A stretch of 64,000 bases of DNA from Octopus vulgaris (lineage: Eukaryota): the NCBI GenBank assembly GCA_951406725.2, contig OX597825.1, positions 39,742,001-39,806,000 on the forward strand, in the 5' to 3' direction. Below, piece after piece: positions 17,777 to 60,335 of this stretch; the first letter of the stretch is position 1, and each line of letters opens with the position of its first letter. The translations under genes were made by a program, and so were the position numbers. The notes under the pieces were generated by a model. The model searched no databases and was not told where the DNA came from. It was given only the letters and a program-made list of their open reading frames with translations.

Positions 17777-20700
17777 ATTTCAACAATTGAGGGTAAAATT
17801 AATTAATTATTAATCAATTTCACCAAGTGTTCAGTATGCAAAGGGACCATTTAAGGCGAATTCAAATTATTACATTATATAAAAGGGCTTAGTAAAATAA
17901 ATTACTTTGCCGCATACTGAACTCATTAGAAATAGCAGCTAAAAAACTTTTTAAAGCTATTTCTAATACTTAAAGAAAATCTCTCTCATATAGTGTTTGC
18001 TTAACTCAACTCACAAAAGTTTGGGGGTAAGGACATCAAAAAATCAAATGCAAAGGTTATTTGAGAACGTACGTTTCAAGATTAGTCAAAACGACACTTC
18101 TATCATCAGCTCAGAAACTCCTTGGTTTGGATTTGAAAACACTGAAAGTAAGAACATACCCTTTCGGCTTCTCATCGCTTTCGAAGATCTGCTCGTAACT
18201 AACAGTGCCAACAAACTCAAATATGCAAGCGAAGAATTTCTGTTCTCCCCTTTCCACCAGCGTGGGTTAAGATCATCAAACACTATGCTTATTTCGGTAA
18301 AATCCGAAGCATTAATTAGAGGGAGATTAATTATAATTTCAACAATTGAGGGTAAAATTAATTAATTATTAATCAATTTCACCAAGTGTTCAGTATGCAA
18401 AGGGACCATTTAAGGCGAATTCAAATTCGTTTGTTGGCACTGTTAGTTACGAGCAGATCTTCGAAAGCGATGAGAAGCCGAAAGGGTATGTTCTTACTTT
18501 CAGTGTTTTCAAATCCAAACCAAGGAGTTTCTGAGCTGATGATAGAAGTGTCGTTTTGACTAATCTTGAAACGTACGTTCTCAAATAACCTTTGCATTTG
18601 ATTTTTTGATGTCCTTACCCCCAAACTTTTGTGAGTTGAGTTAAGCAAACACTATATGAGAGAGATTTTCTTTAAGTATTAGAAATAGCTTTAAAAAAGT
18701 TTTTTAGCTGCTATTTCTAATGAGTTCAGTATGCGGCAAAGTAATTTATTTTACTAAGCCCTTTTATATAATGTAATAATTTGAATTCGCCTTAAATGGT
18801 CCCTTTGCATACTGAACACTTGGTGAAATTGATTAATAATTAATTAATTTTACCCTCAATTGTTGAAATTATAATTAATCTCCCTCTAATTAATGCTTCA
18901 GATTTTACCGAAATAAGCATAGTGTTTGATGATCTTAACCCACGCTGGTGGAAAGGGGAGAACAGAAATTCTTCGCTTGCATATTTGAGTTTGTTGGCAC
19001 TGTTAGTTACGAGCAGATCTTCGAAAGCGATGAGAAGCGGAAAGGGTATGTTCTTACTTTCAGTGTTTTCAAATCCAAACCAAGGAGTTTCTGAGCTGAT
19101 GATAGAAGTGTCGTTTTGACTAATCTTGAAACGTACGTTCTCAAATAACCTTTGCATTTGATTTTTTGATGTCCTTACCCCCAAACTTTTGTGAGTTGAG
19201 TTAAGCAAACACTATACGAGAGAGATTTTCTTTAAGTATTAGAAATAGCTTTAAAAAAGTTTTTTAGCTGCTATTTCTAATGAGTTCAGTATGCGGCAAA
19301 GTAATTTATTTTACTAAGCCCTTTTATATAATGTAATAATTTGAATTCGCCTTAAATGGTCCCTTTGCATACTGAACACTTGGTGAAATTGATTAATAAT
19401 TAATTAGTTTTACCCTCAATTGTTGAAATTATAATTAATCTCCCTCTAATTAATGCTTCGGATTTTACCGAAATAAGCATAGTGTTTGATGATCTTAACC
19501 CACGCTGGTGGAAAGGGGAGAACAGAAATTCTTCGCTTGCATATTTGAGTTTGTTGGCACTGTTAGTTACGAGCAGATCTTCGAAAGCGATGAGAAGCCG
19601 AAAGGGTATGTTCTTACTTTCAGTGTTTTCAAATCCAAACCAAGGAGTTTCTGAGCTGATGATAGAAGTGTCGTTTTGACTAATCTTGAAACGTACGTTC
19701 TCAAATAACCTTTGCATTTGATTTTTTGATGTCCTTACCCCCAAACTTTTGTGAGTTGAGTTAAGCAAACACTATATGAGAGAGATTTTCTTTAAGTATT
19801 AGAAATAGCTTTAAAAAAGTTTTTTAGCTGCTATTTCTAATGAGTTCAGTATGCGGCAAAGTAATTTATTTTACTAAGCCCTTTTATATAATGTAATAAT
19901 TTGAATTCGCCTTAAATGGTCCCTTTGCATACTGAACACTTGGTGAAATTGATTAATAATTAATTAATTTTACCCTCAATTGTTGAAATTATAATTAATC
20001 TCCCTCTAATTAATGCTTCAGATTTTACCGAAATAAGCATAGTGTTTGATGATCTTAACCCACGCTGGTGGAAAGGGAGAACAGAAATTCTTCGCTTGCA
20101 TATTTGAGTTTGTTGGCACTGTTAGTTACGAGCAGATCTTCGAAAGCGATGAGAAGCGGAAAGGGTATGTTCTTACTTTCAGTGTTTTCAAATCCAAACC
20201 AAGGAGTTTCTGAGCTGATGATAGAAGTGTCGTTTTGACTAATCTTGAAACGTACGTTCTCAAATAACCTTTGCATTTGATTTTTTGATGTCCTTACCCC
20301 CAAACTTTTGTGAGTTGAGTTAAGCAAACACTATACGAGAGAGATTTTCTTTAAGTATTAGAAATAGCTTTAAAAAAGTTTTTTAGCTGCTATTTCTAAT
20401 GAGTTCAGTATGCGGCAAAGTAATTTATTTTACTAAGCCCTTTTATATAATGTAATAATTTGAATTCGCCTTAAATGGTCCCTTTGCATACTGAACACTT
20501 GGTGAAATTGATTAATAATTAATTAGTTTTACCCTCAATTGTTGAAATTATAATTAATCTCCCTCTAATTAATGCTTCGGATTTTACCGAAATAAGCATA
20601 GTGTTTGATGATCTTAACCCACGCTGGTGGAAAGGGGAGAACAGAAATTCTTCGCTTGCATATTTGAGTTTGTTGGCACTGTTAGTTACGAGCAGATCTT

Positions 20701-21571
20701 CGAAAGCGATGAGAAGCCGAAAGGGTATGTTCTTACTTTCAGTGTTTTCAAATCCAAACCAAGGAGTTTCTGAGCTGATGATAGAAGTGTCGTTTTGACT
20801 AATCTTGAAACGTACGTTCTCAAATAACCTTTGCATTTGATTTTTTGATGTCCTTACCCCCAAACTTTTGTGAGTTGAGTTAAGCAAACACTATATGAGA
20901 GAGATTTTCTTTAAGTATTAGAAATAGCTTTAAAAAAGTTTTTTAGCTGCTATTTCTAATGAGTTCAGTATGCGGCAAAGTAATTTATTTTACTAAGCCC
21001 TTTTATATAATGTAATAATTTGAATTCGCCTTAAATGGTCCCTTTGCATACTGAACACTTGGTGAAATTGATTAATAATTAATTAATTTTACCCTCAATT
21101 GTTGAAATTATAATTAATCACCCTCTAATTAATGCTTCGGATTTTACCGAAATAAGCATAGTGTTTGATGATCTTAACCCACGCTGGTGGAAAGGGGAGA
21201 ACAGAAATTCTTCGCTTGCATATTTGAGTTTGTTGGCACTGTTAGTTACGAGCAGATCTTCGAAAGCGATGAGAAGCCGAAAGGGTATGTTCTTACTTTC
21301 AGTGTTTTCAAATCCAAACCAAGGAGTTTCTGAGCTGATGATAGAAGTGTCGTTTTGACTAATCTTGAAACGTACGTTCTCAAATAACCTTTGCATTTGA
21401 TTTTTTGATGTCCTTACCCCCAAACTTTTGTGAGTTGAGTTAAGCAAACACTATATGAGAGAGATTTTCTTTAAGTATTAGAAATAGCTTTAAAAAAGTT
21501 TTTTAGCTGCTATTTCTAATGAGTTCAGTATGCGGCAAAGTAATTTATTTTACTAAGCCCTTTTATATAAT
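17777..21571. mobile_element. ~560-bp hammerhead-containing tandem array with internal inversion (retrozyme-like), flanked by (TA)n
   Basis: ~1.2 units ribozyme-minus (17777-18427), junction at 18428, ~5.6 units ribozyme-plus (18429-21571); units differ by only a few bases. Confidence 0.93.
18532..18583 (+). ncRNA. Type I hammerhead ribozyme motif, 560-bp family (also starting at 19092, 19652, 20211, 20771, 21331 on +; 18062-18113 on -)
   Basis: tgag CTGATGA [t aga..gtc gtttt gac..tct t] GAAA cgtacg TT ctca: 4-bp stem I, palindromic stem III, GUU triplet, U-U mismatch at the base of stem II. Confidence 0.72.
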
Positions 21572-22094
21572 TTATATATATATATATATATATATTGTTA
21601 TATTTCGGAATGGTCATATTGCCAGTTTAGCCAATATATATATATATATGTATACTTATAATAAGAGTAGATCGTATACGAGTGGGTATATATTTGTAAT
21701 AAAGAAATTTGAAAACGCCACTATATTAGTTAAATTTTAATTTTCTTATGAATTTTACATGTTTCGGTTCTTGAAAAAACGAACCTTATCAAAAATATTA
21801 TAAAAGGTAAAGTGTAATAGCAAAGTTCATAATTGTTTCTTACTGGTCTCAATAGAATCCATGTGGTTGTGTTTTGTCGGTAGTAGGTATAATAGCTATA
21901 AATTTCAAGTTGAGTGTAGTAAAGAAGTTCATTATTGTTTCTGAAATGGTAGCAGCAGTAGTGATTGTTGGTCGTAGTAGTAGTAACCTTGGTGGTGGTT
22001 GGGGTTGCAGCAGCTTATTGGTTGGAGCGGCTAAGTTGTGGCAGTCCTAGCAGCAGCAGTATGACCAGTGGCTTAAATGGCAGTAGTAGCAGTT

Positions 22095-59302: not shown

Positions 59303-59597
59303 AGCAGTAAGGGAAATATATAAAGCATTTTTATTATAGCAAAAAAATAGCAAAAAATGGAAAAAAAATGATGGTATAGAGTTAAAAAAGGTGGAGTTGC
59401 GTCCCCTAGACGGTCTGTGGTTTGGGTTCCTGATTCTCGACCCCATGTCGAATATAGAACTGGGAGAACTATTTTCGCTGCGTTAGTATTATGACATTGG
59501 CTATATATCAGAATCGGTTGAAAGCCGTGGTCAGAGTGAGGGTACAGAAAACAGACACACAGAAAACGCACAGACACTTTTATATAGAGAGAGATAT
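59303..59597 (-). mobile_element. Helitron-like 5' fragment
   Basis: Minus strand ATCTCTCTCTATATAAAAG-tgtctgtgcgttttctgtgtgtctg start resembles the terminus at 14455. Confidence 0.4.
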
Positions 59598-59604
59598 ACA
59601 TTTA

Positions 59605-60335
59605 TGCTTACTCCGGTATATTATAAATATGTAATTTAAAATAGGATAAAATGTTTTTTAGAATTTATCAAGTTAGTAGTCAGCGTGAAAAACCACATAA
59701 GTGAAACCTTATTCCATTTAAATATATTTATTTGTGATAAGGGCATTACTATACATATATATCTCACGCTATGAGGGACTGAAAATAAAAACTACCATAA
59801 TAAATACAGTGTACCGAACACGGGGGAATGCACCTCTAGGAGCGAACTCGTTAAAAACAGATTCAGCCACAGATCATGGGATTTCATAATTAGTGCACAA
59901 AATGCAATTTTAAACGTCAGCGCAGGCATAATCAAGAAACATAAAAATGGACAAAAATCACCAAATGCATCAAGCTGAGCACAATAGGGTTGTTCACTCC
60001 TATATATCTAATTCAGAGGCGTGCTTTCGTATTGCATCTGGGTACATGTGTATAATCTGAATAATTCAATACTGAATATATTCCGGTTAAATTTAAAATT
60101 TAAAATAGGTTAAATTCTTTATAAGAATTTATCAAGTAGTCAGCGTGAAAAACCTCATAAACAAAAAATTATAATTATTCCCTTTAAGTATATTTATATA
60201 TAATAAGGGCGTTACTACACAGAAATCCCTCACCGAGATGCAATCCCTCACGTTTTTTACACTGTATTTATTATAGTAGTTTTTACTTTAAGAGTCCCTC
60301 ATAGGGTGAGGCATTTATGTGGAAGAATGCCCTGA
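59605..60335 (-). mobile_element. Older relative of the 481-bp family: ~465-bp partial tandem plus terminal inversion, ending in (TA)n
   Basis: Shares aatt.atcag..ag...agcgtgaaaaacc.cataa and agggcatta.t.....cacgcta.gagggac with 31197-31680; 60257-60333 inverts 59740-59813. Confidence 0.75.

Follow-up and report, generated by a model that had tools for sequence, protein, structure and literature searches.

The question raised by this locus is why the inverted insertions of two kinds of repeat, apparently noncoding tandem arrays with hammerhead ribozymes and Penelope-like elements (PLEs), should all have the same polarity. The locus is a stretch of 64,000 nucleotides of the Octopus vulgaris genome (contig OX597825.1, positions 39742001-39806000 within a 2.8-Gb assembly of 227 contigs; hereafter the window), AT-rich and microsatellite-dense, in which the arrays belong to three families named by their tandem periods as 560, 492 (492-493) and 481. 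All seven inversions listed in the initial annotation were found by self-comparison of the window, and every one has an antisense left arm and a sense right arm, an arrangement termed here tails-out. The explanation favoured below, with a probability of about 0.6, is that the reverse transcriptase (RT)-endonuclease of a PLE, probably acting as a dimer, primes at both ends of a break in a (TA)n tract, using two fixed sites (A and B) on a single RNA molecule, probably a circle, and that the two complementary DNAs (cDNAs) are end-joined. The rule that an inversion has one end of each kind (A+B) is sharper than the geometry itself and was absent from that annotation, as was the single template haplotype of the two arms.

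The orientation was tabulated in a genome sample obtained by own-genome searches with the 560, 492 and 481 queries, from which the best 40 of 1494, 1344 and 2167 candidates, respectively, were taken; the sample is biased to young copies holding a full unit and is not a census. For the 481 family, 30 loci were returned and L162 was removed as a duplicate of L157; the loci analysed were 40 (560), 40 (492) and 29 (481), that is, 109, including the window's own three. L231 and L232 were entered as one count. Nine further insertions, of the 492 family only, came from an extra search with a short (100-nt) query. The 109 loci hold 87 inverted insertions and 23 of single orientation, and the strand switches are tails-out in 28/28, 37/37 and 21/22 cases across the three families (86/87). 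With the short-query sample, where all six inverted insertions are tails-out and three insertions have a single orientation, the total reaches 92/93, the sole tails-in case (L156) being a 36-nt fragment across a TA run. Thus, tails-in and tails-out inversions are not equally common among the sampled loci, and the tails-out geometry proposed in the initial annotation is real and beyond chance. About four-fifths of the sampled insertions are inverted, and the two-ended route therefore looks like the norm in these families, unlike in L1. In target-primed reverse transcription, the cDNA extends from a DNA end toward the 5' end of the RNA. The tails-out geometry taken alone is unsurprising, because any two-ended target priming must produce it. 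Nesting between families is also seen, a 481-family end abutting the inner end of a single 560-family arm in the right flank of L057.

More is told by the ends. In each family an arm has one fixed and one variable end, the former situated downstream of the ribozyme core, and this independent check agrees with the polarity assigned. The fixed 3' end takes one of two positions, A and B, which, counted in the unit from the predicted ribozyme cleavage site, are 196/294 (560), 131/239 (492) and about 137/268 (481), 98-131 nt apart. The 87 inversions comprise 77 that pair an A with a B end, one that was scored A+A, and nine in which one end is at neither site; since the extra 492-family inversions are A+B in 6/6, the rule holds in 83/84 classifiable inversions (p about 4e-24 versus independent choice of the ends). 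A TA run follows 178 of the 190 A or B ends, and the order of arm lengths is unbiased, with the A arm longer in 43/77. Circular folding did not bring A and B together. Between the two sites, the 560, 492 and 481 units contain a hairpin of 12-15 bp that ends about 15-22 nt before B and is followed by CC(C)T and a small AT-rich hairpin, possibly, to judge from the sequence, a protein-binding signal.

These counts speak to the idea that two independent insertions of opposite orientation entered the same (TA)n tract and were later evened out by gene conversion. Reuse of (TA)n is indeed seen, the 560 array lying inside the TA run that ends the neighbouring 17.3-kb element, and L156 and the PLE locus L248 may be such cases. 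However, with independent insertions tails-in should be as frequent as tails-out, the arms should be separated by a TA run, and A+A or B+B should make up half of the inversions; these predictions are contradicted by tails-in in 1/93, homotypic ends in 1/84, junction gaps mostly below 7 nt, and the haplotype shared by the arms, so that the idea is highly improbable.

The shared haplotype was revealed by comparison of the arms: in 27, 35 and 19 insertions of the three families, the proportion of shared sites at which they differ is 0.27, 0.32 and 1.18%, against means of 1.84, 1.41 and 3.48% under permuted arm pairing, the observed values being below the lowest of 500 permutations. Subfamily-diagnostic sites agree between arms in 639/652 cases, with 368 expected. 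At sites covered at least three times per insertion, 303 derived alleles are present in all units, 15 in all but one, 250 in one unit and 40 in some units, a distribution that fits a monomer circle but also a homogeneous source array. The 560 units at 18429-21574 of the window (L070) alternate two haplotypes at several sites, four of them in the 'some units' class; a dimer circle, a duplication of two units at a later time or the phasing of the assembly could be responsible. It might also be supposed that each break end was primed on its own RNA molecule from the same source locus, by an asymmetric complex with A assigned to one side and B to the opposite side; such dual priming has already been proposed for L1 (PMC2837659). 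It would account for the overlapping arms, 72/77 B arms running past site A, with no strand displacement, but both RNAs would have to share a haplotype in nearly every event (639/652) despite the many variants in each family, and an excess of B-arm ends near site A, described below, is not predicted. Dual priming is accordingly regarded as rather unlikely.

As to the form of the template, the ribozyme cleavage site is crossed by 139/154 arms, and the template was therefore uncleaved or re-ligated RNA. The inner ends fall within 10 nt of the cleavage site in 15/174 cases (7.2 expected), and a minority of arms may have run off linear RNA. In L240 and L106, an arm starts exactly at the predicted cleavage site (unit position 1), as if from linear self-cleaved RNA.

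The inner junctions show the microhomology that the initial annotation had suggested looking for: the arms overlap by at least 3 nt at 31/81 junctions against 6.5% of random pairs, a figure that BLAST ends can inflate, while 10 of the 81 junctions are blunt and 19 have filler. Extra short unit pieces, resembling the template switches of L1 twin priming, are present at the inner junctions of L046, L094, L105, L145 and L152. Nine tests of junction position were made, and their p values are uncorrected. The inner ends of B arms lie within 20 nt of site A in 15/77 inversions (6.2 expected, p=0.001), as expected if both primers occupy one template; those of A arms lie near site B in 9/77 within 20 nt (p=0.16) and in 16/77 within 30 nt (p=0.02).

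The same junctions allow weighing of fold-back or template switching, named in the initial annotation beside priming from both ends, in which a singly primed product would switch onto its nascent cDNA and the second end would be set by an endonuclease (EN) cut at the other site; it closely resembles the proposals of self-priming and of EN resolution made in PMC3846280 and PMC8557442. Such a switch explains the shared haplotype directly, and there is a modest excess of near-symmetric junctions (12/77 within 20 nt, 6.2 expected, p=0.02), inner ends being no more than 30 nt apart in 3/6 short-query inversions and in the window's 17.3-kb element. Yet 65/77 junctions are not symmetric within 20 nt, and those symmetric within 10 nt number 5/77 (3.2 expected). 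Fold-back also predicts that one arm always lies inside the other, which fails, neither arm being copyable from the other, in 7/77 inversions and also, clearly, in L233 (short by 210 nt) and in L250 (by 27 nt). The seven failures match the 7.5-9.2 expected if, with sampling by the same rule, arm lengths were independent and exponentially distributed; they are fewer than the 14.3 expected when the observed arm lengths are resampled (p=0.014), which favours fold-back. It is therefore excluded as the sole route, not as a contributor, and as the main route it is disfavoured and unlikely.

The inversions could finally be fold-back artefacts of long-read assembly, since the data are assembled contigs only, and the window junctions at 17609 and 18428 are not among the 15 joints shown, out of 95, for window 17000-19000. 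However, an artefact would mirror the ends and flanks, and the arms instead end at different fixed sites, with different flanks and unrelated inner starts. Besides, 14 of the 15 joints shown, from contigs of three studies (runs X1, X2 and X3), join an antisense to a sense arm at other positions, and at loose ends in these contigs TA runs adjoin the A and B sites. These families therefore have head-to-head junctions outside this assembly as well, and an artefact is hardly credible as the explanation.

The same regularity is met in the PLEs beside the arrays. The 22-kb element, which targets TA, comprises an inverted arm at 21651..22099 on the minus strand (L121), which is 5'-truncated, ends in a 36-nt tail (end B) and is 94% identical to the right arm, and, beyond a junction at about 22099, a plus-strand body at 22100..24380 (L111), with an RT remnant, a CX4CxxC motif, a GIY-YIG remnant and a 3' end that lacks the tail (end A). 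The plus-strand domain matches are RVT_1 at E=8.7e-5, which is below the curated cut-off, and GIY-YIG at E=7e-6; the order of RT and C-terminal GIY-YIG is present, and CX4CxxC upstream of GIY-YIG is the motif given for Neptune/Nematis in PMC8557442. No CTGANGA core was found on the sense strand of this truncated and decayed copy. The family ends at reference positions 264 and 300, 36 nt apart; all eight inversions seen are tails-out, and seven of them are A+B, with an inverted pseudo-long terminal repeat (pLTR) and a 36-nt tail at one end. The old 41-kb element has an inverted minus-strand arm at 40138..41190, holding a putative GIY-YIG region and a tandem pLTR, with a 3' end that is about 35 nt longer and a flank of (AAT)n, and a decayed plus-strand body at 41191..43509, the junction being at about 41190-41211. 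Its left-arm frame has no Pfam match and no match to the 22-kb proteins, and its broken translations show RT-like and YIG-like motifs by eye. The arms are 74% identical, with differences of 24, 41 and 26 by codon position of 181 and thus no third-position excess, and the best relatives are 75-80% identical, which together fits one old event. Among the matches listed for this family, all eight other loci with both strands are tails-out. A 66-nt piece of the 44-kb family described below lies within the right arm of this element, at 43222-43287.

The mechanism favoured here would embrace both kinds of insertion: the arrays would be non-LTR (long terminal repeat) retrozymes mobilised in trans by a PLE. 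An RT-endonuclease complex supplied by such an element, probably a dimer, would break a (TA)n tract through both strands. Of the two DNA ends so produced, one would serve as primer at site A and its partner at site B of a single RNA, which is probably circular. From each site, cDNA synthesis would proceed in the direction of the RNA 5' end, in many cases beyond a full lap, before halting at a variable place, and end-joining, with overlap or filler of a few bases, would fuse the two cDNA ends. Two-site priming of this kind would force the tails-out geometry, a tail at one end and none at the other, and the same haplotype in the two arms. The suggestion of the initial annotation that both ends of a (TA)n break are primed thus finds support in the A+B rule, the shared haplotype and the TA runs, and its suggestion of a mechanism common to arrays and Penelopes in the A+B pairing of 83/84 array and 7/8 Penelope inversions. 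In vitro, the Anolis Poseidon PLE cuts and extends both strands of an AT-rich target, its RT starts at two internal sites bounding the tail, ribozyme cleavage is dispensable, and the enzyme has been modelled as a dimer (PMC11167929); on the mechanism proposed, these features would be shared with the present case.

Several observations weigh against this mechanism. The template in the Poseidon study was linear, start-site use did not differ between strands, and inverted products and pairing per event are not addressed in the accessible text (PMC11167929). Since 72/77 B arms extend beyond site A, either the leading cDNA has to be displaced by the trailing enzyme or the priming has to be sequential. 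Gene conversion, or the use of two transcripts made from a single locus, could also have produced the shared haplotype. The A+A case, L168 of the 481 family, has a right end interrupted by other sequence, 9/93 inversions have one unclassifiable end, one inversion of the 22-kb PLE family (L248) is B+B, and 26 sampled insertions have a single orientation. The RNA circle is deduced, not observed, no run recorded as RNA being listed as containing the stretch, and the sequence comparison of arrays with PLEs was confined to the window. With the two-site mechanism retained, a wider claim may be put forward tentatively, namely that Penelope retrotransposition is normally a programmed two-ended priming, in which a dimer uses two fixed sites once each on a single circular ribozyme RNA, with two RTs circling it.

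The remaining inversions of the window conform to the same arrangement. The 17.3-kb element is an older 492-family copy, the left arm of which (17344..17609, minus) is 92% identical to the 492 unit (unit 465 to 239) and ends outward at site B, while the right arm (17608..17754, plus) ends at site A in (TA)13; the arms overlap by 2 nt at 17608-17609. The 560 array (L070) has a left arm of 1.2 units (17772..18427, minus) with its outer end at site B (unit 294) and a right arm of 5.6 units (18429..21574, plus) with its outer end at site A (unit 196), a single C separating 18427 from 18429. The 481 repeat (L141) consists of a left arm of 1.4 units with two type I hammerheads (31184..31865, minus; outer end at site A) and a right arm of 76 nt (31863..31938, plus; outer end at site B), with a 3-nt overlap at 31863-31865. 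In the 492 array, a left arm of 4.9 units with five type I hammerheads (35715..38119, minus; outer end at site B, unit 239) meets at 38118-38120 a right arm of 1.8 units with two (38120..39014, plus; outer end at site A, unit 131). The 59.6-kb relic is a diverged relative of the 481 family: its left arm (59624..60233, minus) is 64-68% identical to the 481 region and ends near site B, and its right arm (60226..60336, plus) is 77% identical to the left one, ends at site A in (AT)n and is 83% identical over 48 nt to the 481 A end. The junction of this relic is at 60226-60233, about 25 nt to the left of the position of about 60255 given in the initial annotation, the other junctions of which agree within a few bases.

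Two further old inversions were absent from that list. One, at 34797..35668, is tails-out, with CTGACGA cores at 34862 (minus) and 35545 (plus), a right arm about 55 nt longer, and both ends in (TA)n. The other, at 43983..45250, was first taken as tails-in, which was overturned: it is read as tails-out because its family-fixed ends point outward and a hammerhead-like core lies on the opposite strand, and the longer end is on the left arm and not on the right. A small old inverted repeat between TA runs, its right arm about 55 nt longer, is seen at 39128-39395.

Polarity was also assigned from the ribozymes, for which a hammerhead descriptor was run on the window units with reversed sequences as controls. 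Type I hammerheads were obtained in seven copies of the 492 unit (five minus to the left and two plus to the right of the junction) and in two copies of the 481 unit, both minus, with stems I/II/III of 8/5/5 and 7/4/4-5 bp, respectively; the reversed controls gave none. The 560 unit contains a candidate minimal core (CUGAUGA, GAAAC, palindromic stem III) at 18109 on the minus strand and at 18536, 19096, 19656, 20215, 20775 and 21335 on the plus strand, which did not pass the descriptor, its fold being no better than shuffles (z=0.20). At the Rfam gathering score, there was no match in the window, the 492 and 481 units included; 93 Rfam matches by E-value were rejected, being mostly microsatellite-driven miRNA models with no hammerhead family among them. 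No CUGAUGA core was found in the 17.3-kb arms, and no ribozyme in the 76-nt right arm of the 481 repeat or in the 59.6-kb relic. The polarity of these was set by homology to the 492 and 481 units, and that of the Penelopes by the RT/GIY-YIG frame. Thus, of the claim that all seven inversions are ribozyme-minus on the left and ribozyme-plus on the right, the geometry stands in 7/7, but the word 'ribozyme' is literal for the 560 and 492 arrays only. In bins of 1 kb within the 560 and 492 arrays, the GC content is 33-38%, and the longest stop-to-stop frame of the 560 unit (123 aa) has no match to the PLE proteins of the window, the sole comparison set.

Related sequences occur nearby in the window. 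A fourth array at 31997-33013, minus and of single orientation, has a 588-bp unit in 1.7 copies with a hammerhead-like core (CCGAUGA ... GAAAC ... GUC) and is 65% identical to the 560 unit over 205 nt. Two related minus-strand relics at 54744-54926 and 59015-59208 are 75% identical and have CTGATGA ... GAAAC cores. Apart from these, the region at 3.0-12.0 kb contains several LINE-like copies, truncated and terminated by (AAT)n, in which RT and zf-RVT domains are present.

The arrays resemble the metazoan non-LTR retrozymes (PMC7229834, PMC7761336, bioRxiv 10.64898/2026.07.22.740005), which are noncoding tandem repeats of low GC with one type I hammerhead per unit, and for which multimeric cDNA from circles and a role as non-autonomous partners of PLEs, the latter acting as mobiliser, have been proposed. 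The unit periods exceed the 150-450 bp of PMC7229834 and fall within the 51-972 bp of bioRxiv 10.64898/2026.07.22.740005. The mobiliser of animal retrozymes has been deduced only from co-occurrence and pLTR homology (PMC7229834; bioRxiv 10.64898/2026.07.22.740005). The words 'inverted', 'orientation' and 'microsatellite' do not occur in the accessible text of PMC7229834, and in that of the three retrozyme papers there is no description of fixed paired ends or head-to-head arrays; the accessible parts of PMC8969392, PMC12910113 and bioRxiv 10.1101/2022.05.23.493040 add nothing on inverted retrozyme arrays or one-tail pairing.

With PLEs (PMC8557442, PMC3846280) the arrays share an inverted 5'-truncated copy at the 5' end, a one-ended tail and microsatellite targets, the 22-kb element fitting with its 36-nt tail, since the PLE tail is of 30-40 bp and often at one end only (PMC8557442). 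Unlike PLEs, they appear to encode no RT or endonuclease, have tails of 98-131 nt, and both arms may be multi-unit; unlike the optional tail of PLEs, the array tail is on exactly one arm in 83/84 cases. That inverted pLTR copies are known for Penelope, as the initial annotation stated, is borne out by PMC3846280, in which inversion of the pLTRs in head-to-head order is the commonest configuration of PLEs and is attributed to self-priming with an antisense template; the origin of the Penelope tandem and inverted repeats and of the tail is described as unresolved in PMC8557442. L1 twin priming (PMC2837659, bioRxiv 10.1101/2024.08.27.596794) is alike in that both target ends prime on one RNA with the same polarity and microcomplementarity joins the cDNAs, as does the overlap here. 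It uses, however, poly(A) and a chance internal site, whereas both sites here are fixed and internal with no poly(A), and its arms barely overlap, whereas the overlap here is wide. Both ends here lie in (TA)n, which would mask a target site duplication. The simple L1-style version on a linear monomer was ruled out by the 72/77 B arms that pass site A.

Head-to-head pLTRs, a one-sided tail and two RT start sites are thus already published for Penelope elements, while the near-strict A+B rule and the single template haplotype in noncoding ribozyme arrays appear to be undescribed. The literature searches returned no account of inverted retrozyme arrays or of strict A+B pairing, their scope being papers other than subscription papers and supplements, which may bear on the regularity of the tail. 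Arkhipova (2006) and Evgen'ev and Arkhipova (2005) may be relevant to that regularity.

The finding means that a PLE hallmark, the one-sided tail of a head-to-head insertion, occurs in noncoding ribozyme arrays in large numbers and with near-perfect regularity, which ties the arrays to PLE chemistry through their junctions. The A+B pattern speaks against a main route by antisense self-priming and opens the PLE mechanism to testing in the existing in vitro PLE system. If Penelope retrotransposition were normally a programmed two-ended priming, the inverted pLTR, the one-sided tail and the retrozyme arrays would be products of one reaction, and the junctions would provide sequence evidence that PLE enzymes move retrozymes.

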